64,000 bases of DNA from a virus (IMGVR_UViG_3300043120_000090:1-64000); one strand, 5' to 3'; shown: positions 20,734 through 43,695, numbered from the stretch's first letter. Program-made: numbers and translations. Notes: a model not told the origin generated them from the letters alone.

Positions 20734-23700
20734 TTATAGTTTACAACCACCAATACAATCTACTCCATCAGGAACATCTGCATTACCATTATCATTAGTA
20801 TTATGGTAGTATAGTGTCTTTATACCTATTCTATGGGCATATATTAATGTACTTAATATATCTGTTAGTGGTACTTTATTATCTGGATAATTAGATGGAT
20901 TATAGTATGTATTAGCACTAATACTTTGGTCTACAAATTTTTGCATAATAGCTACACTTCTTAAATATCCTTTATTTGTAAATTTAGGACTCCATGTAGT
21001 AGTATAGTTATAGTACAAATCAAATAGTTCTGGAGCGGCTTGTTTATAAACCCCATCCTTAGAAGATTTTACACTAAGTAACTGTCTAGGAGGTTCAATA
21101 CCATTAGTAGCATTATTTATCTGTGCCGAAGTTTCAGCAGGCATTAAAGCAGTTAATGTAGAATTACGTAATCCTGTACTAACAATTTTATCTATTAAGC
21201 TAGACCAATCACAATACAAAGGTGTATTACAAAATTCTTTAATATTAGTATTAGATCTAGAAATAGTAGTTTCACCTCTAGCATATCTAGTCTGTTCAAA
21301 TAACTCACATTTACCTTTTTCAATAGCTAAGTCAGCGCTAGCTTCCAATAAAGAAAATTGTATTAATTCAAATAGTCTATGAGTAAACTCTAATCCCTCT
21401 GGACTACCATATTCTAAATCCCTCTTAGCTAAGGCATAAGCATAATTTATCACACCTATACCTAGAGTTCTACGCATCTTATTTATTTCTGCTGCTTTAA
21501 CTGGGTATTCTTGGTAATCTAATAAATTATCTAAGGCTCTAACTGCTACTCTTGCTGTAGCTTTAACAGCTTCTGGTTTATCTAGGTCAATAGTACCTAG
21601 ATTCAAACCTGCTAGTGTACACAAAGCTATTTCTTCGTTTGGACTTCCCATAGGTTGTGTAGGGAGTAATATTTCCATACATTGTCCAGTTAAAAGTCCA
21701 TTAAAAAATCCCATATTACGCTTAGGTTCAGTAAAACAAAAAGTATCATCTACTCTACCATTATTTATAATATTAGTTACTTTTATAAATCTAATCGCGC
21801 TTCTTTGTAGGGTTCTAAAATTAATGGTTAATCTATGTAACTTTAGACCTAGATTTAGTAATTTTTGTGACTCAACAGATGGTATTAATAATCTCCATTG
21901 TTGTTTACAGTTATATTCTTTTAAAGAATTACTACCATCATTTGCAGGTAATAAATGCATTCCCTTAGAATTTTTAGTCTCAGTAATTTTACTATTAACA
22001 CCCATAGTCATCAGCATTAATTGAATATCTTTTAAGAACCCTAGATTTATACTAGCTGCGGTAATCTGCTCATTAGTACCGTTTCTATAGATACAACCAT
22101 CTCCATCTAAGTATCCCGCTAACCACTTTAATCTAGAGTCTATAGTATAGGATGCATCTGGTACAAAAAATTTATCTTTTAAATCTTTTGTATGCAAATA
22201 TATTCTATTGTATTTATCTTGATAAATTATACTATAATACTCGGCTGTAAATTTATCTAAAAGACTTTTTTTGTCTCCATATAAGTATATACGTTGATGA
22301 TTACCAGAACTTATATAACAACCATCTGCACTATAAAATCCATTATCATATGGATGTTTTAGCATCTTATCTCCCTCAATTATAGGTAATTCAAATTTTA
22401 TTAATTTGTCTCCTACTTTTAGGTCTTTAGCTGCTACGCGTTCAGGTTTACCTCTATAAGAGTTCTGAGTATAAAAATGATGTTCCATAGTACACTCTAG
22501 TTCCTGCCCACTATCGGTACAAACCTTTATTAAGGGTCTATTAATGCCTGTTTTATACACAGTGGTTTCTGAGAATTCTTCCCCATTCCATACATTAACC
22601 TTTTGCCCTTCTAAATCAGCTATTGGAAGGAAGCCCACATCTGTTAATACTAAAGTCTCTGGTGCAACACAAAGATTTGACTGCTTAACAGGAGCTACTA
22701 CTGGGTCAAACATACCTTGTTCTGTACTATTATCTACATTATGTATGTAAATACGTCCTGTTTGCGCTCTTTCAGTAGCTAAAGACGTAAATAACTCTAT
22801 AGCTGGTATTGATTTCTTAGTTATATTAGGATCTTTTTCTAAAGACTCATATAATTCTTTAAAGGCATCTTGATCACTAAAGAAAAAGTCATATAAGTCT
22901 CCATCAGCAATATCTGGACTAAATAAAGTTATATTCTCACCATTAACTAAACGATCATAAAATAGTTTATTAATTTGTACGCCATAATCCATATGACGGA
23001 TTCTATTTTCATCTGTGCCACGATTATTTTTTAGAACCAATAAGTTCTCTACTTCTAGGTGCCATATTGGATAAAATAGAGTGGCAGCTCCACCACGTAA
23101 TGCCGGTTGTAGTCAATGAAATTCGTTAATTTTCACCAGTTCTCTTATGAACTTCTTTATATTACTATAAAGCCTAGACTATATCATCATCCTATTAGGA
23201 TGCGTACCATTTCGATTTAACTAGGATTTATTAGATTATTACTCTACACCTAGACCACTTGGCTCTACTCTACTCCCTTCCATTATTATATGTGGTTTCG
23301 ATAGTCGTTGAACTTTACCTTACTCCTTGATTTATATAGGAGTAGCAAGGTCTTAGCTGCTGATTGTCCTAAATATTAGGAGTTCCCAGCAATTAGATAC
23401 GTTTTTCGATAAATATTACTATTTAAAGGGGCTATTATATTAACCCTGGCTACATGATTTTACGGCAGTATAAAAGTGACGATAAAATGGTACTACTCCA
23501 GTATGTACTGCTGAGCCATTTCTGATTGAGGAACCTAAAGCACGGATAGCTCCACCATTAATACCAATACCAGCTCGTTTAGATATATACTCCACAATAG
23601 CGGAAGAAGCAGCATTAATTGATTTTAATGAATCTCCAGATTCAATTAAACAACAAGAACTAAACTGTCTTGTAGGAGTTCTAACTCCTCCCATAATAGG

Positions 23701-24321
23701 TGTAGGTAAACTTAAACGTCCTTGAGATACTTCTTCATAAAAATCTATGATATAATTTAGACGATCTTCTTCAGGCTCATTCTGGTGTAAACACATACCT
23801 ATTAGCATAATTGCTATTTGCGGAGATTCTCTTAATTCTTTAGTTACACGATTTTGTACTAAGTATTTTTCTCTCCACTGCACAGTAGCTGCATATGAGT
23901 ATTCTAAATCTTTATTATGATCTATATATTCATCTAATAGAGTTATTTCCTCCCAAGTATATTTCTTTAGTATCTCTGGATCATAATATCCTTCTTCTAT
24001 ATTAGATACTATTAAATTATACAATTTTGGAGGTTCATACATGCCATAAGCACATTTTCTCATATCAAATATGTTTAGTCTAGCAGCTGGTGTTAAATAC
24101 TCAGGTTCTACTTCAGTAGATAAATCAACTGCTGCTTTAATAAGTGCTTGATGAATATCTTTAGTAGTAGGTAATGTATCTAATTTATAAGAGGCTGCCA
24201 TAAGAATGGCTGAAGGATTAGCTTCTGTTCCTTCACATGCCCATTCAACTACTGTATTAACTTTCTCTGGAGAGAATTTTTCTCTATATCCGCCTCTTTT
24301 TAAAACTTCTTTTATTTCCAA
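20734..24321 (-). CDS. nrdA: class Ia ribonucleotide reductase alpha subunit; join(24321-23443, 23103-20734), contains an intein; mature ~752 aa
   Basis: N-terminal ATP cone, SSCCLI, SQG|ALRGGAAT junction, SNL|C.E, MPAETSA, KTLYY, C-terminal CxxxC. Confidence 0.95.
21682..22671 (-). mobile_element. 330-aa intein with LAGLIDADG endonuclease in NrdA, ending in Gln
   Basis: Starts CVAPETLVLT, ends FNGLLTGQ before Cys+1; motifs GFYSADG and LAGYLDGDG. Confidence 0.93.
23104..23442 (-). mobile_element. group I intron in nrdA (339 nt, ORF-less)
   Basis: GGT|taata...caaccG|GCA; core elements CTAATTGCTGGGAACTCC, GACAATCAGCAGC, GACTA and GATATAGTC. Confidence 0.92.
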
Positions 24322-24330
24322 AATAACACC

Positions 24331-24414
24331 TCAAAAGCAATTAATCAAAGTAGATAGTATAATCATCCAAAAACTTTCATTATAACTAATATACCATAAA
24401 TTTAATTTGTTCAT
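24331..24414 (-). CDS. possible hydrophobic micro-ORF (27 aa)
   Basis: AGGAG SD, between the promoter and nrdA. Confidence 0.4.
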   Translation of the reverse strand: MNKLNLWYISYNESFWMIILSTLINCF

Positions 24415-24434
24415 ATTTTTCTCCTATTTATACT

Positions 24435-24464
24435 ATTATAAAATTTTTAATAGTTATTAGTAAA
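24435..24464 (-). promoter_or_regulatory. nrdA operon promoter
   Basis: TTTACT-N18-TATAAT. Confidence 0.7.
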
Positions 24465-24480
24465 TAATATTTTTAAAGAT

Positions 24481-24512
24481 AAAAATACCCTGAACTAAGT
24501 CAGGGTATTTAT
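24481..24512 (-). terminator. intrinsic terminator
   Basis: aaataccctga/tcagggtattt hairpin with flanking A/T runs. Confidence 0.7.
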
Positions 24513-24513
24513 T

Positions 24514-24750
24514 CTATATTAAATCATCTACTACTATGTGTGTAGCTACAAGACCTTTAATATTATTAGAGTTATTTAATTTACTTTTTCTTTCCCTAAT
24601 TCTATTCTTTAAACTAAGAATATTAAATAACTCTGGAGTTAGAGAAGATTTAAACATTAAGATCTTACATTTATTCTTATTTTCCCATCTTTTAACTTTT
24701 TCGGATAAAGTTAATTGTTTTGGTACTGGAAATTTAATTATATCTGTCAT
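24514..24750 (-). CDS. hypothetical protein (78 aa)
   Basis: TAATG coupling with phoH. Confidence 0.65.
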   Translation of the reverse strand: MTDIIKFPVPKQLTLSEKVKRWENKNKCKILMFKSSLTPELFNILSLKNRIRERKSKLNNSNNIKGLVATHIVVDDLI

Positions 24751-25541
24751 TAATATTGGATTCCTAATTCGGAGAATTTATCGTAGAAATATGCAGATTC
24801 ATTACTACGAACTACATGTACCAGTTCACATAGTCTTATAGGACACTTACTTGGGTCATTATGTACTAGTTTTAATATAAGATTAATACCGCTAGGTACT
24901 TTTAAGTCTATTTGATTAACATCACCACAATATACAACTTTAGTATCTAAACCTTTACGTAGCATAGAAACTGCTATAGCTCTTTCTTCCATATTATTAA
25001 CTTCATCTATGATTATAAAAGAGTTATTCCAAGTACGACCTCTAAGAAACATTACCGGTAAAAATTCTATTTTACCTGCTTCAATAAGATTTTTTACTGT
25101 CTTCTCCCCTGCTACATATTCTAATCCATCTAATATAGGTATTAAGTAAGGTTTTAATTTATCATATATACCTCCAGGTAGAGCACCTATATCTGGGCCT
25201 AATGGTATATTAGGTCTGATTAAGATTATTCTTTCAATTGGAGAGGATGGATCTAATAACATTTCCATAGCTTTTGCTGCTGCTAGGAAAGTTTTACCAG
25301 ACCCAACAGTACCAAGAATAGCTGTAAAACTATGGTTATCTATAGCATTCAAAGCTCTTTTCTGTTGGTCATTTTTAGGTTTAACTAATCTAAACTTATC
25401 CTCCCTTTTTGGGTTAGGAAATTCGTAAACATTTTCATTAATACCACTATAAGTAGCTTGATTAATATATTTTTGACGTTTACTTATTCTAGATTGTCTT
25501 TTAGATTCTCGTCTCTCAAAGCGTCTTTGGTTACTTGACAT
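24750..25541 (-). CDS. phoH: PhoH-family ATPase
   Basis: GTVGSGKT, IILIRP, RGRTWNNSFIIIDE and GDVNQID motifs. Confidence 0.93.
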   Translation of the reverse strand: MSSNQRRFERRESKRQSRISKRQKYINQATYSGINENVYEFPNPKREDKFRLVKPKNDQQKRALNAIDNHSFTAILGTVGSGKTFLAAAKAMEMLLDPSSPIERIILIRPNIPLGPDIGALPGGIYDKLKPYLIPILDGLEYVAGEKTVKNLIEAGKIEFLPVMFLRGRTWNNSFIIIDEVNNMEERAIAVSMLRKGLDTKVVYCGDVNQIDLKVPSGINLILKLVHNDPSKCPIRLCELVHVVRSNESAYFYDKFSELGIQY

Positions 25542-25909
25542 TAAGCATCTCCGTTTAGTCGGTAGAGGAACTTTATTGTTCTTACCTTAACAACTATATA
25601 ATGACATATTTTAAGCCTATATTCAAGATAATTTTTAAAGTTTATATCAATACATTTAAAATCCTTTAAATTTTCGCCACCGCGCCTGAGACCATAATTT
25701 TATGCTATATACTAAAAGTTACATGTATGGTTGTATTACAACATAAAAATAATTCAAAATTAGGATTTTTTAACGCATAGCTTTCAGGTATCAAACCGTC
25801 TTACTTTTTAGAATTTTTGAAAGAATTTTTGAAAGCTAAAAAATTTATTTACAATGTACTATATAAAATGATAAGATATATACCAAATGTAGGAGGTTTT
25901 TAATAATAT

Positions 25910-28681
25910 ATGTTTTCAATACTTAAAGGACATAAAGGTTACCATTTTAATGAATTAATGGGGCAATGGGACTTTATTGAGAGAGATAGTTGGATATTTG
26001 CAAAAGTATTTAGATTAGATACAAAGGGTGAAATCATTTCAAGTCCAGCTATGCTACCTAGTAAATTTGAGCTATATAAGGAAGTTAATCCTATTAATTT
26101 AGATGAGACTTATGAATTAGTAAAAGAATTAGCAACTAATCCTAATTTACTAGCTATTAGGGGTTCTAAAACTATTAATTACGAACCATTTAAAAGAAAT
26201 AAAGCTAATTTTAATACTAGTATAGCTAGTAATATAATAGTAATGGATATAGATAGTGTACCTTTAAATAGTAGACTAGAGAAATTAAATATTAAATCTT
26301 GGGCTGATTATATTATAGAATGTTTGTCACAAATAAACCCAGAAATATTTAATATAGATATGGGATATATTGCTCATGCGTCAAGTTCTGCAGGTCTTAA
26401 GGAAAATATAAGGATGCACTTAGTACTGCAATCTGATAATCCAGTTAACCAAGCTCAATTAAAATATCTATTTAGTGAAGTTAATGCTAAAGCAAAAATA
26501 ATGTTTCAGTTTGAAATAGCTGACTTAGCATTATATAGTCAAACACAACCGCATTTCTTTGCTGATCCATTATTTTATGACGGTATTTTAGACCCATTTA
26601 AAGATAGTTCTAGATTAGTATATCAGCCTGGAGAAGTGTGTAATATACCCACTAATCTACCAGAGTTTGTATCTAAAAAGGCAGATGTAGTTAAAAATGA
26701 TTTTTCATTATTTAATATGATTGATGGTAAAAGGTCTATACCTAAAGCAGTTCAAGAAGTAATTGAAGAGCTAAAAGATGCAGATGATGGTGTATATTTG
26801 AGAATTATGCCCAAACTATATCATAGAGCTTGGCAGAATGGTGTAAATATACCTTGGTTAGAAAAACAAATAAGACCTATACTAGAAGAATATATATACT
26901 ATGCTGATAGAAAAGATAGAACTGTAGAGCAATATATGCATAATGGTAGATCTGAGGCTTTAAGGGCTTTCTTAGGAGAGGCTAGGAGATATGTACCTGC
27001 TATCATAGATGGGGTAGAAGTAGAAAAGATAAGTTCGTCCTCTAATGATGAAGATATTTATCTAAAAATTAGAGATTTACCACCAAAAGGTTCTATAACA
27101 TTTATTAAAGCTAGTTTAGGTACTGGTAAAACTACCGCTGTTACTAACTGGTTAAAAGAAGGTAAAGTATCCGGTGGCTTTATGGCCATTACTAATACTA
27201 GGTCTTTAGTGTCTTCTAATGCAAAAAAATTTAGAGCTGGAGAATATAGTAATACTATGGATATGTTAGAATTCTCTTGTGGTAGTTCTGACAGAATAAG
27301 TACTACTATTCATAGCTTACATAAGTTTGCAGCTTGTACTCACAGAATAAAATTCTTATTTATAGATGAGTGTGATGCAGTAATGAATGATCTTCTATTT
27401 AGTCCTCTAGTAAAAAAGAGACGAGAATGTATTAATACTCTATTTCAAATAATGATGAGCGCAGATTACGTTATACTATCGGATGGTGATATAAGTGAAG
27501 AAACTGTTAGTGCTTATGGTAGCTTAATAGACTATAATAAACCAATTAACGCAATTAGTCACCCTAGAAAGATGTTACATGATGCAATAGCTTATGAATT
27601 TGGAGATGAAGAATCTATTTGGGCAGCATTTAAATCTAGTATAGAATTAGGTGATAAATGTATATTAGTTTCAGACTGTAGCCCAGATGATATTAATGAA
27701 AGATGCATGAGTATTAGACAACAAACAGGTAAGATTGTAAAAGAAATACATTCTGCTTCTACTGAAGATGAAGATATTAGAAGAATATTAGACTATACTA
27801 ATGATGAACTAAAAAATCAAGGAATTGATGCATTAGCATGTAGCCCTTCAGTTACTAGTGGTGTAGATTTTAATTATTTTGATAATGTTTTTGTCATTAC
27901 TTTATCTAGTAATCAGACTCCTAATTTAAGATTTCAAGCACTTAGACGTGATAGAGGTGCTAAATTTATATTCTACTATACCTCACCAGATACTAAAGGA
28001 TTCTCTGCTGGTTCTGATGAATACTTAGTACACGAAGGTTGGTTAGAAAAAGCTCAACAATTATTCGCTAAAAGAAGGGAAATAGAAAGTGTAAACTTTG
28101 AAAATACTTTTAGATATTATTTAATGGAACAAGGTTGTAAAATAAAGATAATTGAAGAAAAATGGGGCAATTTAGAAACAGATACAGATGCTTATTTAGC
28201 TCAGAAAGTATCTGCTATAATAGCTTCAACATCTTCTTATTGTCCACCTAGACATAATGATGCGTGGGAAATTAAGCAAAATATTTTAAGATATTTTCAT
28301 ATCGATAGTACCAATGATATTACTATTGAAGATATATATAGATTCTTAAAGGATAAACCAGATAAAAAAGCTGAATTCTTTCATAAGTTATATCCTATAT
28401 TTTGGCCTTCAATTAGTAAATGTACAAAAGGTTTTCAACCTTTTATAGATGCATTAAAACTTCATAAAAAAGAATTTTATTTAGCTACTGGATGTAATGC
28501 CAATCCTAGATTCTATAGAATGCAGTTAGTTAAAGCAGGTATTAAAGAACCTGGGGAATTTCTAAATATAATAGATTGGTATAGAACTTATTGTATGATA
28601 AATAATATTGATATACCAACTGAATTCTTAACTGATGAAGAAAAGAAAACATTAGGAGAAAGGAGATTAGAAATTGAGTAA
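25910..28681 (+). CDS. replication origin-binding protein / SF2 helicase (T5 obp-like)
   Basis: ASLGTGKT, IDECD and SPSVTSGVD motifs; 923 aa; opens the T5-type replication cluster. Confidence 0.88.
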   Translation: MFSILKGHKGYHFNELMGQWDFIERDSWIFAKVFRLDTKGEIISSPAMLPSKFELYKEVNPINLDETYELVKELATNPNLLAIRGSKTINYEPFKRNKANFNTSIASNIIVMDIDSVPLNSRLEKLNIKSWADYIIECLSQINPEIFNIDMGYIAHASSSAGLKENIRMHLVLQSDNPVNQAQLKYLFSEVNAKAKIMFQFEIADLALYSQTQPHFFADPLFYDGILDPFKDSSRLVYQPGEVCNIPTNLPEFVSKKADVVKNDFSLFNMIDGKRSIPKAVQEVIEELKDADDGVYLRIMPKLYHRAWQNGVNIPWLEKQIRPILEEYIYYADRKDRTVEQYMHNGRSEALRAFLGEARRYVPAIIDGVEVEKISSSSNDEDIYLKIRDLPPKGSITFIKASLGTGKTTAVTNWLKEGKVSGGFMAITNTRSLVSSNAKKFRAGEYSNTMDMLEFSCGSSDRISTTIHSLHKFAACTHRIKFLFIDECDAVMNDLLFSPLVKKRRECINTLFQIMMSADYVILSDGDISEETVSAYGSLIDYNKPINAISHPRKMLHDAIAYEFGDEESIWAAFKSSIELGDKCILVSDCSPDDINERCMSIRQQTGKIVKEIHSASTEDEDIRRILDYTNDELKNQGIDALACSPSVTSGVDFNYFDNVFVITLSSNQTPNLRFQALRRDRGAKFIFYYTSPDTKGFSAGSDEYLVHEGWLEKAQQLFAKRREIESVNFENTFRYYLMEQGCKIKIIEEKWGNLETDTDAYLAQKVSAIIASTSSYCPPRHNDAWEIKQNILRYFHIDSTNDITIEDIYRFLKDKPDKKAEFFHKLYPIFWPSISKCTKGFQPFIDALKLHKKEFYLATGCNANPRFYRMQLVKAGIKEPGEFLNIIDWYRTYCMINNIDIPTEFLTDEEKKTLGERRLEIE

Positions 28682-28964
28682 ACCTTGGATAGTAGAGAGT
28701 AATACTAATAAAGCTAAGAAAAGGTTTAAGGATAAACCTTTTCTATATGAAAATAATAATATTTATCAAACTAAAAGAACTAATAAAAAAGTAATATGTA
28801 GGGTAGTACCTGCAGATTTTATTTATGCACAAGAATTATTAGATATGCCTAAGGAAAATTATATTCTCCCTGAAGAAGTAGTTTTAAATAAATTAAAAGA
28901 GCTTCGTGCTACTATTTTTAGTATTGCTATATTTAATAATCAATTAATAAATTTTAAAGAATAA
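28674..28964 (+). CDS. hypothetical protein (T5-like, follows obp)
   Basis: ORF overlapping the obp stop. Confidence 0.7.
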   Translation: MSKPWIVESNTNKAKKRFKDKPFLYENNNIYQTKRTNKKVICRVVPADFIYAQELLDMPKENYILPEEVVLNKLKELRATIFSIAIFNNQLINFKE

Positions 28965-28988
28965 ACGAGTTAAACCTAATAAAAACTA

Positions 28989-29017
28989 TTTACTATTGAC
29001 TAGAAATAGCCTATAAT
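28989..29017 (+). promoter_or_regulatory. sigma70-type promoter
   Basis: TTTACT-N17-TATAAT. Confidence 0.8.
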
Positions 29018-29043
29018 ATAATAATAAATAGAAGGAGTGAGAA

Positions 29044-29289
29044 ATGAAAAATTTTGAAGAATTTTTGAAAGCAATGTATAATAATCATGTATCATTTTCA
29101 TACTATAAAAATAATGGAGAACTGCGTCAAGCAACTGGCACATGCTTGCCAGAGTATATGCCAGTGCCTAAAGGTACAGGATATGCTACCCCAGCAAGTA
29201 ATCTACTTTACTTTGATTTTGAAGCAAAAGCAGTTAGATCCTGTAAAATTGATAACTTACAAGATGACTGGAAAATATTAAATGAGTAA
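29044..29289 (+). CDS. SH3/WYL-like beta-barrel phage protein
   Basis: VSFSYYKNNGELRQATGT...YFDFE...RS pattern; AAGGAG SD. Confidence 0.75.
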   Translation: MKNFEEFLKAMYNNHVSFSYYKNNGELRQATGTCLPEYMPVPKGTGYATPASNLLYFDFEAKAVRSCKIDNLQDDWKILNE

Positions 29290-29470
29290 AGATACTGGTA
29301 AAGTGGCATCTAATGAACAACTAGAGTGCTATGCATGTGATCTTGAAGGACAGCAAGAGTAAAGTATTATAGTGGAAGAATTAATTGAGAAAATTTTTGA
29401 AGATCCTTTAAATTATGAAGAATTTATATGGGGTCAAGGTATTTCTATTATTATGTTTAAAGAGGATTAA
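29282..29470 (+). pseudogene. 62-codon ORF interrupted by an in-frame TAA (29360-29362)
   Basis: The frame continues with coding-like acidic sequence up to the D2 start. Confidence 0.45.
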
Positions 29471-29472
29471 TA

Positions 29473-30171
29473 ATGGCTAGAATTTCAACAGTAGATATTT
29501 CTAAAGAACAGTACCAAGCAGCTATAAATCTACTAGAAGAAGGTGGTACTAAAAAAGCTGCTTGCGAAATTCTAGGAATTAATTATAATACTACCAGGCT
29601 AGGTAACCTATTAGAAGAATTTAAGAATAAAGAAGCGATCACCCAAGAACTAAGACGTAAGAAAAGAGGAACTAGTGTTAGTAATGATGAATTACTTACT
29701 ATGATTTCCATGTATTTCGAAGAAGAATCTATAGCTAATATTGCTGCTAGAACTCATAGATCTGAGGCTTTAGTTAAAATTCAGCTAGAAAATTCTGGTG
29801 CGATGTTACGTAAATTTTCAGCTATAGATCCTCTTAATCCCCCAGAATTACCCGAATTATGTATAAAAGAAGATTTCCAAATTGGAGAGATTGTCTGGGT
29901 AGCTGCATATAACTGCACTGGTGAAGTTAAAGGTGAAGCGAAAACTAAATTAGGTGAAAAAGCTTATAAAGTATATTTACTTGAATCAAGTATGCATAGG
30001 TATGTATACCAACCCTGGTATGATTTAGGCTCTTTAGACCACCTTAGAAATTTAGGATTAAAAGTGGAAACTATTCAATCTATTATGCCTATTGAAAAGA
30101 GACATGAATTACTACATGAAGCTCTACAAAAACTACGTAAAACTAAAGTACAAAGTAGAGGTGATGATTAA
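29473..30171 (+). CDS. D2: T5 D2-like protein
   Basis: GGTKKAACEILG HTH-like N-terminus; size and position match T5 D2. Confidence 0.8.
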   Translation: MARISTVDISKEQYQAAINLLEEGGTKKAACEILGINYNTTRLGNLLEEFKNKEAITQELRRKKRGTSVSNDELLTMISMYFEEESIANIAARTHRSEALVKIQLENSGAMLRKFSAIDPLNPPELPELCIKEDFQIGEIVWVAAYNCTGEVKGEAKTKLGEKAYKVYLLESSMHRYVYQPWYDLGSLDHLRNLGLKVETIQSIMPIEKRHELLHEALQKLRKTKVQSRGDD

Positions 30172-30365
30172 TGCAAGATAAGAAAGAAGAACAAATTAAT
30201 ACAGATGAAAGAAAAAATAGTATTATTCTTTTATTAGATATTTTAGAACATGCTAGGTTTTATAATTTAGAATTTGAGGCTTTTAATTCTGCCAATATTA
30301 CAACAGCGGAATATAAAAAATTAGTTGATGAATTAGAAAGGGCTTTAGCAGATTGGGATGTTTGA
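30171..30365 (+). CDS. hypothetical protein (64 aa)
   Basis: TAATG coupling to D2. Confidence 0.7.
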   Translation: MQDKKEEQINTDERKNSIILLLDILEHARFYNLEFEAFNSANITTAEYKKLVDELERALADWDV

Positions 30366-30392
30366 TTAAAAAATATCAAATTGAAAATTTTC

Positions 30393-30421
30393 TTTACTAA
30401 ATTCTATAACAATAATATAAT
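30393..30421 (+). promoter_or_regulatory. sigma70-type promoter
   Basis: TTTACT-N17-TATAAT. Confidence 0.8.
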
Positions 30422-30479
30422 TTATTTAATCTCAATTGAGATTAAAATATTAACAAAATAACAAAGGATAAAATAAAAT

Positions 30480-30905: not shown

Positions 30906-30914
30906 GGAGAGTTT

Positions 30915-31518: not shown

Positions 31519-31530
31519 TGTGGGGTTTTT
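31504..31530 (+). terminator. intrinsic terminator
   Basis: aaaaaccctac/gtggggttttt hairpin. Confidence 0.65.
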
Positions 31531-31544
31531 CTTTATAAATCTTA

Positions 31545-32903: not shown

Positions 32904-32932
32904 TTTACTATTCCCAAAATTTTCAATATAAT
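32904..32932 (+). promoter_or_regulatory. sigma70-type promoter
   Basis: TTTACT-N17-TATAAT. Confidence 0.75.
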
Positions 32933-32970
32933 ATTTATATTGAATCGAGAGAAGGAATAAGCAATAATAA

Positions 32971-33741: not shown

Positions 33742-33766
33742 TCGATCTAAGAGGAAAATAAATAAT

Positions 33767-34507: not shown

Positions 34508-34519
34508 TTTAACTTAAAC

Positions 34520-34544
34520 AAAGGGAGCTTAGGCTCCCTTTTTT
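34520..34544 (+). terminator. intrinsic terminator
   Basis: aagggagc/gctccctt hairpin + T-run. Confidence 0.8.
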
Positions 34545-34631
34545 ATTATGAGAAAATAATGAGTGCAAAAATAGTAACATTAGAAGAATTAATCTATATG
34601 GATATAACACCTATAACTTTCGGTAATTAAT

Positions 34632-35021
34632 ATGAAAAATATCATAATACGTAACTTTATTACTACTAAATTTTATCATAATAATAACTACATAGAAATA
34701 GACAAAAAAGAGTTAAGTAATATTGTTAATAATACTCAACTGCCTCTACCTATATGTAGAGATTATGATACAAATAATATAGTAGGATATATAAATTCTA
34801 TTAGATTAGCAGAACACGGGAAATCTATCACAGTTGAAGCATCTATACAAAAAGAGTTTACTGATTTTTCTGTATATTCAATAGGTTGGGGCTTACAATT
34901 AGATAATTTAGAAGATAATAAATGGACTGATTTAGTTTTAGTAACTTCTGGTCTATATGTTAAATCGAGCCTAGATAATATGGATAAAAGTATTTATGAA
35001 AGTATTGATACTATCGCATGA
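34632..35021 (+). CDS. hypothetical protein (129 aa), weak prohead-protease-like pattern
   Basis: LPICRDYD..NIVGYI segment. Confidence 0.65.
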   Translation: MKNIIIRNFITTKFYHNNNYIEIDKKELSNIVNNTQLPLPICRDYDTNNIVGYINSIRLAEHGKSITVEASIQKEFTDFSVYSIGWGLQLDNLEDNKWTDLVLVTSGLYVKSSLDNMDKSIYESIDTIA

Positions 35022-35298
35022 TGAAGTTTCTCTTTCCCCAAGAGAGGCTATAGAAAAAGCCAGATCTGAACATGGATCTTATGCGACTATTGTGGCTCTA
35101 CCTTCTTCCAATAATGAATATGCTCAATTATACTTTGCAGCTCAGGTCTTATGCGCTGACCAATTAGTAAAATTAAAAATTGACACTAAGGATATAGAGT
35201 TATATAATAGTAAGAAATTATTATTAATTGAAAGTATAGTAACCCAGTTCAGGGAGGTATTAGATGAAGTTATATCTGATACAGAAGAAGCATTATAA
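34996..35298 (+). CDS. hypothetical protein (100 aa)
   Basis: ORF coupled to the helicase (TAATG). Confidence 0.7.
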   Translation: MKVLILSHDEVSLSPREAIEKARSEHGSYATIVALPSSNNEYAQLYFAAQVLCADQLVKLKIDTKDIELYNSKKLLLIESIVTQFREVLDEVISDTEEAL

Positions 35299-36755
35299 TG
35301 AATGTAGAAGCAGTAGTAATATATCTACTGCTAAAATCTAAGTCAAGAGAAGAAGCTCTAACTAGATATTCTGATTTGCGTGCAGAATTTTTCTCTACTA
35401 CGTATATACCATTAATACGAGCTATAGAAAGATTTTATCAAACAAAAGGTATAATTCCTACCATAGACCTATTAGAGTTAGACTGTTCTAGAAATATTAG
35501 ACTTTCTACTGCTTTAGCTGCACTAAAAAGTTTAGAGATCTCAGAAGACGAAAATGACTATGATTTAGCGGTAGAAATCTTAAAAGATCAGTTTACTCAA
35601 AAGAAATATTTAGAATTATTAAATGATAGTCTTAATGATATATCTATAAAAACTTCTACTGAAATAGTAGATTTAGCAAGTACAATATCTTTAAAATTAG
35701 AAGAAGTAATTAAACCTAGTAGTTATATGCGTAAATCTAGTGAGATAATGTTATTTAAATCTAAAGAGGAGATAGCGGAAGATACTATGTTTTTAGGTAT
35801 AAGTAATAAATTTGACTCTGAATATGGTGCGGCTAGGAGAGGAGAAGTATTACTTATAGGTGGTAGAAGAGGGGCTGGTAAGTCTGTTATATGTACTAAT
35901 ATTACTCAAGAAGCTGTATTAAATGGTTTTATAGTTCCATACTTTGCCTTAGAAATGACAGGGGAAGAAACTAAGCAAAGACATATGGCTATAGCTAGTG
36001 GTGTGAAAGCATTAAAAATACGTAATCAAAGTTATAATATAGAAGATTTAGATAATTTAGTTTTAACATTATGTAAAAACTATATAAATGGTAAAGAATT
36101 ATATAATAGAGAGCAAAGTAAATTAATAGATTTTAATGCATATATAGAATTTGAAAAATTACTATATGCTGAAGGTATTCCTGATGATTCAAAAGGAGAC
36201 TTAATAGTAATAGATGATACTGCTTTAAAATTATCCTCTATAGATAACTACTTAACTAGACTTAAATCTAGATATGGAAAAAGGGTAGGGCCAGTTATAA
36301 TTGACTATGTTAATCAAATAGTAATGGATGGTACAAAAGACATAGATATGTATAATTGGACAGTACAGATATTAATCGCTAAAAAACTAAAAGAATTAGC
36401 TAAAAAACACAATATAACTATATTTGCACCTTATCAAATAGATGAATCTGGAGAAGCTAGGATGGCTAAAGGTATTTTGGATTCTTGCGATTTTGCATAT
36501 ACCGTAAAACCTATTCATGTAGAAGGAAAAGATATAGGGCTATTAGAGTGGACAGGTACCAAAGCTAGAGGTTTACCTACTTTTAATTTTAAAGTTAAAA
36601 TTGATTGGTCTACATTAAAAATTTATCCTAATGAATTATCTCCTATAGAGATATTAGAAATTATAGGTGAAGAAGCTAATGAAGAAAAACCAAAGAAAAA
36701 TAATAAAAAGAAAAGTCAGAATGAGATAGAAGATTCTATGGAGTTAAAATTATAA
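35298..36755 (+). CDS. D6: DnaB-like replicative helicase (T5 D6)
   Basis: GGRRGAGKS Walker A, FALEM, IIDYVNQ and APYQ motifs. Confidence 0.9.
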   Translation: MNVEAVVIYLLLKSKSREEALTRYSDLRAEFFSTTYIPLIRAIERFYQTKGIIPTIDLLELDCSRNIRLSTALAALKSLEISEDENDYDLAVEILKDQFTQKKYLELLNDSLNDISIKTSTEIVDLASTISLKLEEVIKPSSYMRKSSEIMLFKSKEEIAEDTMFLGISNKFDSEYGAARRGEVLLIGGRRGAGKSVICTNITQEAVLNGFIVPYFALEMTGEETKQRHMAIASGVKALKIRNQSYNIEDLDNLVLTLCKNYINGKELYNREQSKLIDFNAYIEFEKLLYAEGIPDDSKGDLIVIDDTALKLSSIDNYLTRLKSRYGKRVGPVIIDYVNQIVMDGTKDIDMYNWTVQILIAKKLKELAKKHNITIFAPYQIDESGEARMAKGILDSCDFAYTVKPIHVEGKDIGLLEWTGTKARGLPTFNFKVKIDWSTLKIYPNELSPIEILEIIGEEANEEKPKKNNKKKSQNEIEDSMELKL

Positions 36756-37618
36756 TGAATAATGATGTATTAGATCTTTTAAATAAGAAAAATATTCAAT
36801 ATACTTTAAAAGGTAAAGATGCTTTAATATTTTGCCTTAATCCAGATCATGATGATTCACATCCCTCCTGTAGAGTAGATATTTATACGGGCAAATATAA
36901 TTGTTTTGCCTGTGGCTTTGGTGGCAAAAATATATTTGAATATTTTAATGAGTATTATAATCCAATAAATATAAAAGTAAATGCTCTTAAAGATAAAATA
37001 TCTAATTTAATATTAGATATAAATGGTATAGAATTACCAGAAGGTATTGAATACTATTTAGGAAGTCATAGAGATATACCTCCTAATTTATATAAAAAAT
37101 ATAATGTATTTATGCATCCTAAATATGGTGATGATAGATTATGTTTTCCTATTACAGATATTACTGGTAAGATAACTAATATATTAGCTAGAAAATTATA
37201 TGATAAAATACCTCCAAAATATATAGTATATCCAGAAAATAGACCTATACCAGTATTTCCAGTAAGAAAGAATAATTATACTATATTAGTTGAAGGTATA
37301 TATGATGTACTAAATTTAGAAGCTAAAGGACTAGATACAGCCACAGCCTGTTTTGGAACTAAAAGTATAACAGATAAGAATGTTTTAGATAAATTATCTC
37401 CTATAATATATAGTGGAACTAATACATTATTTATCTTATTGGATAATGATAAGGCTGGTAATATTTCAGCAGAATATCTTAAAAAATGTATAGAAAATAA
37501 GATAGATATAAGAGTAATAATATTAAATACATATATACCTGTAGGTAAAGACCCTGGCGATCTCACTAAAGAAGAAGTGGATTCATTAAAAGAAATTATT
37601 GAAAATTTTATTTACTAG
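36755..37618 (+). CDS. DNA primase
   Basis: CLNPDHDDSHPS...C..C zinc finger; TOPRIM motifs VEGIYD and DNDKAG. Confidence 0.93.
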   Translation: MNNDVLDLLNKKNIQYTLKGKDALIFCLNPDHDDSHPSCRVDIYTGKYNCFACGFGGKNIFEYFNEYYNPINIKVNALKDKISNLILDINGIELPEGIEYYLGSHRDIPPNLYKKYNVFMHPKYGDDRLCFPITDITGKITNILARKLYDKIPPKYIVYPENRPIPVFPVRKNNYTILVEGIYDVLNLEAKGLDTATACFGTKSITDKNVLDKLSPIIYSGTNTLFILLDNDKAGNISAEYLKKCIENKIDIRVIILNTYIPVGKDPGDLTKEEVDSLKEIIENFIY

Positions 37619-37639
37619 TTGGTATATTAATAATATAAT
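37611..37639 (+). promoter_or_regulatory. pol promoter
   Basis: TTTACT-N17-TATAAT overlapping the primase stop. Confidence 0.75.
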
Positions 37640-37658
37640 ATATTAATTAGGAGGACGA

Positions 37659-40600
37659 ATGACACAAAAAATATTAGTAATTGATAAAAACCCTAATAAA
37701 ACCGACTATTCAAAAGTATTCGGTTTTGAGGTAGAAACTAAGTACTTATGTAATGAGAAAGTAGCTAGAGTATTAAAGTCTAATCTAACATTAGATTTAG
37801 ATATTATATTTGATTATGATTTTGTTATATTAATAGGTGCAGATGCATTAAAAATATTTTCTAATTCTACATCCATAACTGAAGCTACAGGAAGACGAGT
37901 GGGATTAAAAAAATCTAAATATTTTGAAAATAAAGAACATGATGGTTTAATAGCTTGTGTAAATCCTATGATGACACACTTTAAACCAGAGATGAAACCT
38001 ATAACAGAGCAGTCTATAGAAAGTATTCAAAATATTATTAAAGGATTAGTAACTGAGAAAATACCAACTAATTATAAATTAATTGATACAGAAGAAAAAG
38101 CTAAAGAATATCTTAATTTTCTAATAGAAATGCCACCTAAGTTATTAGCACTTGACTCTGAAACCAGTGCTCTTTATCCTAGAGATGGATATGTATTGGG
38201 TATATCCATTACACATGAAATGGCCCAAGGTGTATATATACTATCAGATTGTCTTACAGAAAATATACTTAAAGATTTCCAAGAATTAATTATAAATAAT
38301 AGTTCCATACATTTAGTATTGCATAATGCTAAATTTGATTTAAAGTTCTTTAAGTTTCATTTTGGTTGGGATTTTAATAAAGCTTTTATTGAAAATAGAC
38401 TACATGATACTATGCTTGAGCATTATATCCTAGATGAAAGAGCTGGTACTCATGGACTAAAGTCATTAGCTATCAAATATACAGATCTAGGGGATTATGA
38501 ACTTCCTTTAGAAGAGTTTAAAAAAGAATATTGTAAGATTAATAAAATAAAATTAGAAGATTTTACTTATGACTTGATACCTATAGATATTATATGGAAA
38601 TATGCTGCATGTGATACTGATGTTTGTTATAGATTACATAATTATTTCTACCCATTAATTGAATCTAATGCTAAACTAAAAAGTTTATATTATGATGTTA
38701 TGTTACCTTCTCTAGAGTTTCTTACTAGAATGGAAGATAGAGGTGTTCCAGTAGCTATAAGTAGACTTCAATCAGCTAAAAGCTTCCTATATAAGAAATT
38801 AGAACGTTTAAATACAGAACTTAGAAGTAGACAAGAAATTAAAGTATTTGAAGATAAAATGGGGAAAGAATTTAATCCTAATTCACCTATTCAATTAAGA
38901 ACTCTTCTATTTGATATTGCTGGTATAACCCCTTTAGATGTATTTACTAGCACAGGTCAATTATCTACTGATGCAGATGTTTTAGAAAAATTAAGTGAAA
39001 AACATCCACTACCAAAATTATTATTAGAAATAAGAAAAACTCTAAAAATATTAAATACTTATATTATTAAAATGATAGATAATATAGATAAAGATGGTAG
39101 GTTAAGAACTGGGTTTAATCAACATACTACTACTTCAGGTAGACTTAGTTCTAGTGGTAAACTTAATTTACAGCAATTACCTCGCGATGATGCAATGGTT
39201 AAAGGATGTATTGTAGCACCTAAAGGATATAGAGTAGTAGCATGTGATTTAACAACTGCTGAAATGTGGGTAGCAGCATCTTTATCTGGCGATAAAGCTT
39301 TACAGGAAGTTTTTATCAATATGGCCAAAGATGGTAAAAATGCTGTAGACTTCCATAGCTCTATTGCACATCTGGTATTCCAGCCAGATTGTCTTGCTAC
39401 TGAGGTTAAAAAACTTTATCCGGCGCTCAGGCAAGCAAGTAAGGCGATTAACAAGTAATTTCCGAGATTATGAAGTTGCCTTTAAACCTCTCTAATTGCT
39501 AGAAACCCCTTAAGACTAATAAACTACAACGTAATTAGAAATAATAAGCGTGAATGTTTAAAAATTATTGGTATTGGGCAACCAGCAGCTAAGACTCTAA
39601 GTATTAAAAAATTGCTTTACAAGCATGTCGTAAATTTATATAATATAAGAGTAAAGTTCAACGACTATCGAAACCACATTTAAGTATGGAAGGGAGTAGA
39701 GTAGGACGCAAGTGCGGTGGTATTTTCGGATACCTTTACCGAAACGGGAGGGTGTTAAGATAAATACTAAAAAGACAATTACCACACTAGAAGATGCCGT
39801 AGATATCGCTTTGCAGTTTTTCGGTGATAATATACCAACAACTGTTAAAGAATACGAAAGCAACTTTCCAAAAGGTATGGGTAGAACTGCTATTAAAAGT
39901 AACTTAGATATAACTATAAGTCAGTTTTTAAAACTACTAAACCCAAAATACGTTAAAACTAACGAAAGAATTAATTTTAATGTATTACTAGGTTTAGCAA
40001 ATAAACTAGATTTTAATTTAGTAGATTATACTTTGGATAACTCTATTAATACTACAGTTACCTTGGAATGTAAACATTGTGGTAAAATACAAAGAAAATC
40101 ATATAAAAGCCTAGCTAACTGCGTAAAGGGATGCGTATACTGTAAGGCTAAAAATGTACAGTTAAAGTTTAATAAAGATAGAATAAATAGTTCATTAGAG
40201 CGAGTAGGTGCTAGCTTAGTTAGTGATATACCAGACTCACAAACTGGAATAATTACTTTAAAATGCAATAAGTGCTTAACAGAATACAGTACACAATTAG
40301 TAGGCTTAGTGTCGCCCAATTCTTTAAAAAGAGGAACATGCCCTAATTGTAGAAATTCTGACTATAGAGTTGTATACAATAATATAACTTTTGGTTCTAA
40401 TTTTGAACTAGAATGCTATAAGCTTATATGTAAGTATAATATTGCCCATTTAGAGCTGCAAGTTCCTTACAAAGAATTTGGTAATACTGATAGAAGGTGG
40501 GTATGTGACTTCCTATTAGACAGTACTATTATAGAAGTATCTACTTTTAAATCTGATTATAAGGGTTATAAAACAAATCTATCTGAAAAACGACAATTCA

Positions 40601-41349
40601 TAGAACATAGTACAACATATGATTTTGAGTTTTTTGATTCATTAAAAGAATTAGAAAGCTATCTTAATGCAAGATATAGTCTCAACGTCTATTGAAAAAT
40701 AGAGATGAGTTTAACGAACTCAGTAAGAAAATGTTCATTCGGAATACTATTCGGTTCAGGCCCAGATAAAGTAGCTGCTACTATTAACGAAGCCCTATTC
40801 GAGCAACATATAGAGCAAGGTACTCCTTATAATCCTATTGATAGAGATAAAGCTGAAGAATATATTGAAATCTATTTCAATAAATTCCCTCAACTTAAAA
40901 AATGGATTAAAGAATCTCATAATACAATTTTATCTAATGGATTTATCTACAGTCATTTTGGCAGAAAACGTAGACTACGTAATATTAGATCTACTGATAG
41001 AGGTATTGTAGGTGAAGAATTAAGAAGTGGATTTAATGCTATTATTCAAGGAGCCTCTTCTGATGTATTAATGTTAGGTGCTATAGACGCAGATAAAGAA
41101 ATTCAAGAAAAGAATTTAGATGCCGAAATAGTTATGTTAGTACATGACTCTGTAGTAGCTATAGTTAGGGAAGATTTAGTGGAAGAATATTCTGAATTAA
41201 TAGTAAGAAATATTCAAAAAGATAGAGGATTAAATTTTGGTGGATTTGGTGTTGGAGTTACATTTGATTCGGAAGAAGGTGGTTCTCTTGACTACTCATG
41301 TGGTAAGATGGATAAACAATATCCAGAATTAGTGAGGATGGTTGCCTAA
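37659..41349 (+). CDS. family A DNA polymerase; join(37659-39448, 40734-41349), ~801 aa
   Basis: 3'-5' exonuclease LDSETS/HNAKFD/YAACD, TTSGRLSS, DLTTAE, RQASKAI|SFGILFG and LVHDS motifs. Confidence 0.95.
39449..40733 (+). mobile_element. group I intron in DNA polymerase motif B (1285 nt) with internal ORF
   Basis: GCGAT|taacaag...gaaaatG|T TCA TTC; core elements CTAATTGCTAG, CAACCAGCAGC, GACTA and AAGATATAGTC. Confidence 0.92.
39712..40695 (+). CDS. intron-encoded putative homing endonuclease (CxxC repeats + PD-(D/E)xK-like domain); start uncertain
   Basis: CKHC, CVYC, CNKC, CPNC, then SNFE...QV.Y...RRWVCDFLL...IIEV. Confidence 0.72.
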   Translation: MRWYFRIPLPKREGVKINTKKTITTLEDAVDIALQFFGDNIPTTVKEYESNFPKGMGRTAIKSNLDITISQFLKLLNPKYVKTNERINFNVLLGLANKLDFNLVDYTLDNSINTTVTLECKHCGKIQRKSYKSLANCVKGCVYCKAKNVQLKFNKDRINSSLERVGASLVSDIPDSQTGIITLKCNKCLTEYSTQLVGLVSPNSLKRGTCPNCRNSDYRVVYNNITFGSNFELECYKLICKYNIAHLELQVPYKEFGNTDRRWVCDFLLDSTIIEVSTFKSDYKGYKTNLSEKRQFIEHSTTYDFEFFDSLKELESYLNARYSLNVY

Positions 41350-41367
41350 TAAGCAACCATTTTTTAT

Positions 41368-41880
41368 ATGGAATATCCAGTTTATTCTTTAAGAAGTTTC
41401 ACTGATAAGTATATAGAAGATAATAAAATTATAATAGAGACATATTATAATACTTATATATTGGATGACCTAAACTTAGTATCTAAAATCCCTGATTATG
41501 TTAAAAGACGTTTATATATAGAAGAAAATAAAGAACTATATAATTATAAACTATATCCTCTATCTAATAAGTTTACTAATTTAGTTCAAATTAATAGGTT
41601 TTATAGAGAGACTAAAAATAAACATTATATAGATATAAATGGTAGTATATTTGTATACAAGCCTACTAAAAGAGTGCAAGTAGTATGGAAGAGGCCAAAA
41701 TATATTGCAGGTAGGTATCCAGATACTTATTTAGCTATAGTTAGAGATATGCCATACCCATTCTTAGTAAATAAAGTTTATAAATATATAGCAATAACTA
41801 CTATTTATAATTCTGCTTTTATATATGATGTATCTGATGAGCAGCAAAAATTGAATGAATATTTTTGGAGGAAAATTTGA
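41368..41880 (+). CDS. hypothetical protein (T5-conserved position after pol)
   Basis: 170-aa ORF; synteny. Confidence 0.75.
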   Translation: MEYPVYSLRSFTDKYIEDNKIIIETYYNTYILDDLNLVSKIPDYVKRRLYIEENKELYNYKLYPLSNKFTNLVQINRFYRETKNKHYIDINGSIFVYKPTKRVQVVWKRPKYIAGRYPDTYLAIVRDMPYPFLVNKVYKYIAITTIYNSAFIYDVSDEQQKLNEYFWRKI

Positions 41881-43695
41881 AATTAATAGTATCTAACAAA
41901 ATATACTTTAAACATAATAATTATGATCTATTATCAAAAATCGAAAAGTCTTTAACGTATTTAGTAGATAATGGTGCACCTGGTAAAAGAGGAATGCCTA
42001 GCAGACCTAAATACTTAATAAGATTTGGTAAAATAAGAGATGTTTATTGGGTACCAACAGGTAAACTTGATTACTTAAAAGAAGTATTTAGTAATGAAAA
42101 GCTAGAGATAATTGATAAAAGGGTTTTAGTACCTGCCAAGATACCTAAACCTTCTTTTACTTTAAGAAAAGATCAACAACAAATATACAATGAGTGTAAT
42201 GATTCTTGTATTATTAACGGTAAACCGGGTTTGATAAACTGAGGCTCGGTATAAACTCCTCTAATTGCTGGAATAGCCTTAGAGATAGTTAAACTACAAC
42301 GTAAATAGAAATATTAAGCGTGAAAGTATAAAAATTAACTATATTGGCCAATCAGCAGCTAAGATCCTTCAAAATTATATTTGATAATCCTTGGATTTTA
42401 AATTATAATTTTATGGATAAAGTTCAGAGACTATCGAAACCACATATAATAATGGAAGGGAGTAGAGTAGAGCCAAGTGGTCTAGGTGTAGAGTAATAAT
42501 CTAATAAATCCTAGTTAAATCGAAATGGGGAGCAATATTGTGAAAGAAATATCAACGACTAAAGTAGCTTTAGATAGAGCTATAGCAATGAAAGTTACTA
42601 TAGTAAAATCTATAAGATATAATAATTATAAATAATATTGAAGATATAGTCCAATCTTTAGGGAAACTTAAAGAGAATGAGTAACGATCATTCGTAACAC
42701 AAATGTTTGGTAAAACAATAGAAGCTTTAGCGATAGCTCATAAACTACAACAAAAAACATTAGTAATATGTACTAATGTTTTTCTGAGAGAGCAATGGGA
42801 AAAAGAAATTGAAAAACATTTTGGATTTACTCCTGGTATTATAGGTTCAGGGCATTATAACACTAAACCTCCTATAGTAGTAAGTAATATTCAAACAGTT
42901 GCTAAGTATGGATTAGAACTAAATTCCACTTTTGGATTAGTTATAGTAGACGAAGCGCATCATTGTCCTGCTTCTACATTTTCGAAGATATTAGACGAGA
43001 GTAGGGCTAGATATAAAATAGGGTTAACAGGTACTCTAAAAAGAAAAGATGGATTACATTGTACTTTTTCAGGTTACTTTTCAGATAAAGTATTCCAACC
43101 ACCAGTAAATAATACTATTAATCCTGTAGTGCATAGTTATAGCACTGATATTCAAATACCTGGTAATATAAGTGTTCCTTGGGCTTTAAGGATTAATGAA
43201 TTATATGAAAACCCTGCATATAGGACTTTAATAGTTAACTTAATAAAAGTATATGAAAGTTTAGGGCATAAAATCCTAGTATTAGTAGATAGGGTAGAGT
43301 TTGCTAATTTTTTACATGAACAAATAACTAATAGTTATATAATATTAGGGGAAACTTCAGGCATAGATAGAGAAAGAGTATTAAAAGCGGTTAGTGATAG
43401 CAAACAATCTACCATAATAGCTAGTGTATCTATATTTAAAGAAGGTATTTCTCAGAATGATTTATCATGCCTAATTAATGCTACATCTACTAATAATGAA
43501 GCTTTAGTAGAACAAACTGCTGGTAGGGTTATGCGAAAAGCTGATGGTAAATTAGATCCTGTTATAGTTGATATAGGGTTAGACGGTATTACAGGTACTA
43601 GACATAGATCTGATAGATTTAATTTTTATTATAGTTTGGGCTGGGAAGTAAAGCCTATTAATATAAATAATATTTATGAAACATTAACTAATTAA
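41865..43695 (+). CDS. D10: SF2 DEAH helicase (T5 D10-like); join(41865-42230, 42706-43695), ~451 aa
   Basis: Splicing restores Walker A GKPG|FGKT; DEAHH, GLTGT, EGIS and QTAGRVMR motifs. Confidence 0.93.
42231..42705 (+). mobile_element. group I intron in D10 Walker A (475 nt, no intact ORF)
   Basis: GGT|ttgata...caaatG|TTT; core elements CTAATTGCTGG, CAATCAGCAGC, GACTA and AAGATATAGTC. Confidence 0.92.

Follow-up and report, generated by a model that had tools for sequence, protein, structure and literature searches.

A probable transfer of a ribozyme domain between the group I introns of nrdA and the D10 helicase gene in a T5-like phage

Results

Five group I introns in one phage genome

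The stretch of DNA analysed here (hereafter the window) comprises the first 64 kb (64,000 nucleotides) of an 85,955-bp IMG/VR viral contig (IMGVR_UViG_3300043120_000090), which is ~76% complete. It contains five group I introns, two in the nrdD gene and one each in nrdA, in the DNA polymerase gene (pol) and in the D10 helicase gene (Table 1), and the introns of nrdA and D10 share an exact block of 100 nt whose origin is the subject of this work. By its gene content and its T5-like gene order (nrdB-nrdA, PhoH, origin-binding protein, DnaB-like helicase, primase, family A polymerase, D10 helicase), the window is assigned to a T5-like phage (Demerecviridae). The pol protein shares 53% identity with its counterpart in Enterobacter phage KKP_3711, and in protein scans of IMG/VR and of the JGI metagenome collection with D10 exon 2, the nearest relative reached only 54-55% identity. 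Five public runs contain the window (two shale-gas metagenomes, from which the contig possibly derives, and three subsurface metagenomes from another study), and four runs (X1-X4) were examined as Logan k=31 contigs.

All five introns were matched by the Rfam model RF00028. Splice sites were set by a U before the intron, a G at the intron end and an open spliced frame, and P1 pairing was derived from the sequence together with the Rfam alignments. Each of the five 5' exons ends in T and each intron in G; in nrdA, for example, the 5' splice site follows ..CAG GGT and the intron-final G precedes GCA TTA CGT. All five spliced frames are open, and all five junctions align unbroken with the uninterrupted nrdA, nrdD, pol and D10 of phage KKP_3711. 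Each intron has one copy of the P7' motif GATATAGTC, and these five copies are the only ones in the 86 kb. Four introns (pol, D10 and both of nrdD) fall below the RF00028 gathering score of 50 because of their large insertions: nrdD intron 2 gives partial matches to the model and carries an open reading frame (ORF) matching Pfam HNH_3 and phrog_59, while the D10 intron, which has no P2 but an extended P5 and an insert in L8, matches the full model (1-253) with an E value of 1.9e-8 in a local search.

The introns of nrdA, pol and D10 and the second intron of nrdD evidently form one IA2-like family whose members are mosaics of one another. nrdD intron 1 gave no BLAST match to the other four introns, and appears to be of a different lineage with no part in the mosaic. 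Four of the five introns follow the glycine codon GGT (boundaries 13863/13862, 14488/14487, 23443/23442 and 42230/42231). In-frame stops occur early, with TAA at the start of the nrdA intron and of nrdD intron 1, TAA after one codon in nrdD intron 2 and TGA three codons into the D10 intron, such that unspliced transcripts would terminate within four codons. At ~21730-22566 on the minus strand, the part of nrdA exon 2 that encodes the barrel domain of NrdA is interrupted by an intein that includes a LAGLIDADG endonuclease domain (Pfam LAGLIDADG_3 and Intein_splicing), so that nrdA contains an intein in addition to its intron.

Table 1. Introns and intron parts in the window (a slash marks the intron position in the protein; HEG, homing endonuclease gene)
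Feature	Position	Strand	Size	RF00028 bits	Remarks
nrdD intron 1	14154-14487	-	334 nt	42.9	ORF-less; junction ..SNG/QTPF.. colinear
nrdD intron 2	13037-13862	-	826 nt	28.4 + 21.2	HNH endonuclease ORF 13270-13740 in P6; junction colinear
nrdA intron	23104-23442	-	339 nt	95.3 (full model)	ORF-less
pol intron	39449-40733	+	1285 nt	43.4 (5' part)	327-aa ORF 39712-40695 in L8; junction ..KAI/SFGILFGSG.. colinear with KKP_3711 pol
D10 intron	42231-42705	+	475 nt	38.8	31-codon ORF remnant in L8; in helicase motif I (..NGKPG/FGKT..)
Block copy 1	23207-23306	-	100 nt		In nrdA intron; probable donor; 100-nt unitig at 2x depth
Block copy 2	42429-42528	+	100 nt		In D10 intron; probable recipient; replaces the short P7.1-P7.2 of orthologous D10 introns
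P7'-P9-P9.x of nrdA intron	23135-23186	-			Common to nrdD intron 2 and Staphylococcus phage nrdE introns
HEG remnant	42540-42635	+	31 codons		In L8 of D10 intron; GTG start; P3' GGGGAG as Shine-Dalgarno

An exact inverted repeat that corresponds to a structural domain

The copy of the block in the D10 intron is the reverse complement of that in the nrdA intron over exactly 100 nt, from GACTATCG to CGAAATGG, with 0 nt of further exact match on either side. An initial annotation of this DNA had described this identity and the inverted layout 19 kb apart, and both hold base for base. The near-exact tract is slightly longer, covering 111 nt at 98% identity (23207-23317 and 42418-42528), with both mismatches in J6/7. 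The two copies, inverted and 19.1 kb apart, form the longest dispersed exact repeat of the window and, apart from a tandem array of 63-nt units at 52.2-53.4 kb, its sole exact repeat of at least 100 nt; the 86-kb contig has no third copy.

In the Rfam alignments, the block appears as an insertion between GACUA, the 5' strand of P7, and AAUGG, the start of P3'. A P7.1/P7.2 extension at this position defines IA-type phage introns (PMC3984707), and the nrdA and D10 introns both have the extra helices P7.1 and P7.2 between P7 and P3' that characterize IA2-like introns. The block begins with the 5' strand of P7, a P7.1 hairpin, a purine-rich strand and a GCC-AAGU-GGU hairpin, and ends with a two-tier hairpin of 33 nt, the J-strand UUAAAUCGAAAU and the first 2 nt of P3', the helix names P7.1 and P7.2 being assigned by analogy with the introns of phage Twort. 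When the introns and the isolated block were folded by minimum free energy, the z-scores of -1.4, -2.6 and +0.7 gave no useful signal, and comparative pairing was used instead, from an alignment of the domain in ten introns (the block, nrdD intron 2 and eight introns of Vibrio, Staphylococcus, Bacillus and Yersinia phages). In this alignment the P7.1 hairpin is variable, the purine-rich strand and the GCC-AAGU-GGU hairpin are invariant, and 9-10 of the 10 introns keep the pairs of the two-tier hairpin, most positions showing 2-4 pair types (covariation). The last two G's of the block pair with the UC that ends both P3 strands, and beyond the block each intron has a P3' of its own (GGUACG with CGUAUC in nrdA, GGGGAG with CUCCUC in D10).

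On the left, the tract ends in GACUAUC of P7 and, on the right, in UCGAAAUGG, which consists of the J-strand and the first bases of P3'; no other sequences are common to all of these introns. The corresponding strings GACTATC and TCGAAATGG are common to nrdA, D10-type and pol-type introns, and directly outside the tract each of the two introns retains its own J6/7 and its own P3' strand, the latter being constrained to pair with the P3 of that intron. The identical tract is therefore a single structural module, with boundaries in sequences shared across the family.

Mosaic structure and probable direction of transfer

Identities given here are from local BLAST; global values per segment were set aside because cheap gaps in AT-rich sequence had made them too high. 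Outside the 111-nt tract, the D10 intron matches only the pol intron (42290-42364 on the plus strand against 39520-39594, 87% over 75 nt), in a P5 extension common to the two, and the nrdA intron matches only nrdD intron 2 (23113-23186 against 13046-13119, 81%), with a core of 52 nt at 92% formed by its P7'-P9-P9.x segment (Table 1) and 13068-13119. These two resemblances had been pointed out in the initial annotation and are confirmed. The 3' half of nrdD intron 2 is by all appearances the closest paralogue of the 3' half of the nrdA intron. A long domain followed by a module of P9, AAGUUCAUAAGAGAACUGG and P9.x is found in nrdA, in nrdD intron 2 and in the nrdE introns of Staphylococcus phages, and the string AAGTTCATAAGAGAACTGG after P9 is also present in loci L168 and L172. 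That nrdA, nrdD intron 2 and nrdE share this 3' module suggests that the block is native to it.

The D10 intron, in turn, gave BLAST matches in the Salmonella Tequintavirus phages phA11, phC11 and Kenya-K44. In phA11 (L185, OQ680478.1 93282-94288), where the "DNA helicase" is annotated as two coding sequences ~1 kb apart, the first exon ends in AATGGTAAACCGGGT and the second begins with TTTGGCAAAACT, which places the intron at the same D10 codon as in the window; the IMG/VR locus L190 is arranged alike. The introns of phA11 and L190 resemble the D10 intron of the window in their 5' half (76%), in P7'-P9 (85%), in J6/7 (CAGAG), in P3' (GGGG(A/G)(G/A)) and in the start of the ORF in L8. However, the span from P7 to CGAAA measures ~34 nt in phA11 and L190, a short P7.1-P7.2 like that of Twort, as against 88 nt in the D10 intron here. 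Five further introns with D10-type J6/7 and P7'-P9 strings are also without the long domain, one of them (L188) having a pol-like version. The D10 helicase genes of phA11, phC11 and Kenya-K44 are all split at motif I by an unannotated group I intron of ~1 kb, in place of which the records list two "DNA helicase" coding sequences and hypothetical proteins.

Because the orthologous D10 introns have a short domain and the long domain is native to the nrdA-type module, we strongly infer a non-reciprocal transfer with the nrdA-type intron as donor and the D10 intron as recipient. We consider it likely, with fairly high confidence, that the exact repeat consists of P7, P7.1-P7.2 and the start of P3' of the nrdA intron, copied non-reciprocally into the D10 intron in place of a shorter domain. 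The initial annotation had read the block as a sign of recent domain swapping or gene conversion between introns that sit in unrelated genes; the present results support this reading and narrow it to the P7.1-P7.2 domain and to the direction from nrdA to D10. A MITE-like insertion (miniature inverted-repeat transposable element) was considered as well and rejected, as the domain is integral to homologous introns and in D10 replaces a native domain rather than adding to it.

It is also conceivable, if improbable, that the exchange was real but had another direction or source, D10 having been the donor to nrdA, or both introns having been overwritten from a third one, for example in a co-infecting phage. 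The first 42 nt of the block do look like the pol/D10 lineage (94% to pol), and the same samples contain other phages with related introns, whose contigs at depth 18-33 match L188-type introns. But the second half of the block, its extra hairpin and the neighbouring 3' module are native features of the lineage of nrdA, nrdD intron 2 and nrdE, the long domain is present in no D10-type intron found elsewhere, and the contig lacks a third copy. Moreover, a strain in run X3, which is 1-3% diverged, has the same block in nrdA: the only change in its nrdA intron is one base at 23122, against nine listed differences in the flanking exons.

Runs X1 and X2 contain a second phage, to which the contigs at depth 18-33 belong. 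The 3' end of its intron (TCAGATTAACGCTCTGACGTAATATAAATG) is identical to that of locus L188, and this L188-type intron adjoins pol-like exon sequence, at a different pol site. This identity suggests that related introns circulate among co-occurring phages.

Identity between the copies exceeds that of the family

Among 50,697 phage records, the best matches to the 111-nt tract are 72-84% identical. The block is thus not equally conserved in introns of unrelated phages, a finding that, according to the initial annotation, would have spoken against a swap. Only 31 of the 116 columns in the 10-intron alignment do not vary; pairwise identity has a median of 72% and, between distinct introns, peaks at 0.89 in two orthologous Staphylococcus introns. 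Similarly, the ~11 paralogous copies of the domain in the 13-intron Bacillus phage Internexus are 74-88% identical. Within the genome studied here, the block is 87-89% identical to nrdD intron 2 (89% for 13145-13218 against 23206-23279), and its first half is 91-94% identical to 39652-39704 of the pol intron, the first 42 nt at 94%; P7.1 of the pol intron resembles the first half of the block, and its P7.2 is different. From the divergence of pol (3/42 nt) and of nrdD intron 2 (8/74 nt), ~11 differences per 100 nt would be expected between the copies, and 0 are seen. Against these values, an identity of 100% is an outlier. Scans for the exact pattern of the block core found one unrelated jumbo-phage intron in IMG/VR and no match in the JGI metagenomes.

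The identity could in principle be explained without any exchange, by common ancestry and very strong purifying selection, and the strings GGGAGUAGAGUA and GCCAAGUGGU are indeed invariant in all 10 introns. Yet so few columns of the alignment are invariant, and loops and helices covary so freely, that we find this explanation very improbable. The paralogues here and in Internexus are 74-89% identical, the nrdA and D10 introns are unalignable directly outside the block, and the orthologous D10 introns carry a different domain.

The repeat in sequencing reads

The contig is a metagenome assembly, and the piece across the right flank of the D10 copy is not listed among the Logan contigs, both of which would leave room for an assembly artefact in which two differing copies were homogenised or a graph path was threaded via the wrong copy. 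The independent k=31 graph, however, argues against this in two runs. In X1, the block is a separate 100-nt unitig with a depth of 97.9, the sum of its flanks (flanking contigs at 50.7, 42 and 51.1), and the graph has no bubble at the block. On three of the four sides, the flanking contigs of X1 and X2 break off exactly 30 nt (k-1) into the block (23236, 23277 and 42458), and both runs contain 99% of the sampled words of 38000-44000. Small joints in the Logan contigs, with sides of 20-28 nt, derive from related introns of other phages in the sample. A fixed difference between the copies would be expected to give two single-depth paths, so that the one double-depth unitig indicates an exact two-copy repeat rather than assembly smoothing. 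The reads thus reveal no difference that an assembly collapse, a possibility raised at the outset, could have hidden, and we give an artefact scarcely any credence.

The endonuclease remnant of the D10 intron

Over 29 aa, the 31-codon remnant in L8 of the D10 intron shares 48% identity with the N-terminus of the ORF in the phA11 D10 intron (pairwise E 2e-8), and L190 has a full ORF of 250 aa at the same place (L190:1751-2503). The C-terminal domain of the L190 ORF is 38% identical over 77 aa (E 3e-10) to the end of the pol-intron ORF of the window, which suggests that pol and D10 carry related intron-plus-endonuclease elements; the L8 insert of D10 itself gave no match to the pol-intron ORF in DNA and protein comparisons. 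The D10 intron has evidently become ORF-less by deletion of its endonuclease gene and not by the domain swap, contrary to the earlier suggestion that exchanges of this kind are a route to new ORF-less introns.

The pol-intron ORF has no Pfam family, contains four CxxC pairs and shares a C-terminal ..D-x-EVS-x-K.. segment with the L190 ORF. It may represent an uncharacterised family of homing endonucleases, perhaps, as a guess, PD-(D/E)xK-like.

Other features of the window

A GOLLD RNA (RF02032, 176 bits, full model) with an embedded tRNA (2011-2083, minus strand) is located at 1665-2149 on the minus strand, within a cluster of ~14 tRNA genes (1.4-9.4 kb). An intergenic motif of 60-70 nt (..AATTTATAAATATATTATAC..N..GATTTAGTAAAT..TTTTT..) occurs 7-8 times at 2724-11626, between small early genes and tRNAs, and resembles a repeated promoter/terminator unit. 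The tandem array at 52186-53430 consists of ~16-20 repeats of 63 nt (21 codons) that are 80-86% identical, and presumably encodes a repetitive protein segment in the structural gene region.

Discussion

A non-reciprocal transfer of this kind could be explained by the way in which these phages replicate. T5-like phages replicate with heavy recombination, and their annotations include the nucleases and helicases needed for the copying proposed here. Such copying might start in the course of recombination-dependent replication or break repair, when a 3' end within the D10 intron anneals to the conserved P7/P7.1 sequence of the ectopic nrdA intron; the end would then be extended across the domain and return to D10 at the conserved J/P3' patch UCGAAAUGG, as in synthesis-dependent strand annealing or template switching without crossover. 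The homology available for annealing would be ~55 nt at >90% if the ancestral D10 intron was pol-like, but GACUAUC only if it was phA11-like.

Several points weigh against a transfer from nrdA into D10. The pre-swap D10 intron of this lineage is reconstructed from distant orthologues, the best D10 identity being 54%. If this ancestor had a short domain, just 7-9 nt of flanking homology would have been available per side, which is short for ordinary homologous repair. Since the first 42 nt of the block are also pol-like, that part carries no directional signal. None of the listed Logan pieces covers the right flank of the D10 copy, and while such holes prove nothing, this junction is carried by the assembly and by the 0.99 share of words. 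Finally, splicing of the hybrid D10 intron is presumed, from the intact D10 frame and from the phage being at ~50x depth in two samples.

The repeat also raises the question of what a crossover would do. A crossover between the two copies would leave 23307-42428 inverted and the exons of nrdA and D10 swapped, and should be lethal: the predicted joints are nrdA exon 1, hybrid intron, D10 exon 2 and D10 exon 1, hybrid intron, nrdA exon 2, and since the hybrid introns would have an unmatched P3/P3' (CGUAUC with GGGGAG), inverted genomes would lack both genes, such that only conversion products would be expected to persist. The 19-kb inversion suggested in the initial annotation would therefore be a liability rather than a viable isomer. 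Its further suggestion, exon exchange in trans, is implausible, as both genes read the block in sense orientation and the two RNA copies, identical and not complementary, cannot pair and offer no handle for trans-splicing. A functional repeat, whether a programmed inversion site or a handle for nrdA-D10 trans-splicing, has in its favor only the geometry of an exact 100-nt inverted repeat and is, in view of these products and with no inversion joint among the listed Logan pieces (though k=31 contigs cannot show one), the least credible explanation of all.

The transfer from nrdA to D10 that we favor has a parallel in phage T4, for which Bryk and Belfort (in Nature, 1990) reportedly described spontaneous domain shuffling between the td, nrdB and sunY (nrdD) introns. 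Those events are said to have been lab-selected, reciprocal crossovers between directly oriented introns, with deletion of the intervening DNA. As in T4, different group I introns of one phage are involved, of IA2 type and in nucleotide-metabolism genes, the end points lie in short core sequences conserved between the introns, and the products are chimeric introns. Unlike in T4, the event would be natural and non-reciprocal, concerning one peripheral domain of inverted introns 19 kb apart; there is no sign of a reciprocal crossover with rearrangement, as both genes are intact and in T5-like gene order.

Families of similar IA2 introns within one phage are also known from Twort (2002 work as cited in PMC3073962 and PMC4853749), which, as described there, resembles the phage studied here in having several similar introns of this type, both ORF-less and ORF-bearing. 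The nrdE introns of Twort-like phages contain the whole 3' module, including the long P7.1-P7.2 domain, at 76-84% identity. In these citing papers, however, the similarity of the Twort introns is attributed to common origin. In the literature that we found, which represents the Twort work through the papers citing it, there is no report of an exact block of one domain shared between introns of unrelated genes.

Among known systems, the recipient is close to the D10 introns of phA11, phC11 and Kenya-K44, which have the identical site in motif I, the same J6/7 and P3', and a homologous start of the L8 ORF. While the phA11 intron is ~1 kb long with an intact ORF in L8 and a 34-nt P7.1-P7.2, the D10 intron here retains only 31 ORF codons and has an 88-nt domain of nrdA type. 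This contrast can be seen in the light of the homing-endonuclease cycle of invasion, fixation, HEG decay and loss (PMC1654191). The pol intron retains its HEG and the D10 intron of the same family only a stump, as in the cycle; patching of the ribozyme from a paralogous intron is not part of that model.

It would be tempting to see paralogous introns as mutual donors of spare parts, in that a decaying intron without its HEG, in the essential gene D10, received a domain of different structure and 2.5-fold larger size and presumably splices with it, in a swap that is maybe polymorphic. We put this forward as a doubtful possibility only. If it is true, P7.1-P7.2 would be a module that can be moved freely between introns. 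In X3, a single contig passes through the nrdA copy without a break, a hint that the X3 strain is perhaps without a second identical copy; the cover of X3 over 42256-42900 is thin and was not used as evidence. Should X3 indeed lack the second copy, a natural pair of genomes from before and after the swap would exist.

In summary, this study adds what is probably a natural, non-reciprocal replacement of a single intron domain with a named donor and recipient in a T5-like phage, together with an intron family in the D10 helicase gene. Naming the donor and the recipient is possible since the old domain survives in orthologous D10 introns of other T5-like phages, and the D10 introns at helicase motif I document a hitherto unannotated intron family in Tequintavirus genomes. 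The domain swap leaves the current view of group I intron function unchanged, although the long P7.1-P7.2 extension of nrdE type is apparently able to serve a ribozyme that normally has a short one. Intron-intron recombination, as demonstrated in the laboratory for T4, would then also shape the introns of wild T5-like phages, and the repeat would be a natural record of modular ribozyme evolution, in which the unit exchanged is a structural domain and the end points lie in conserved core motifs.

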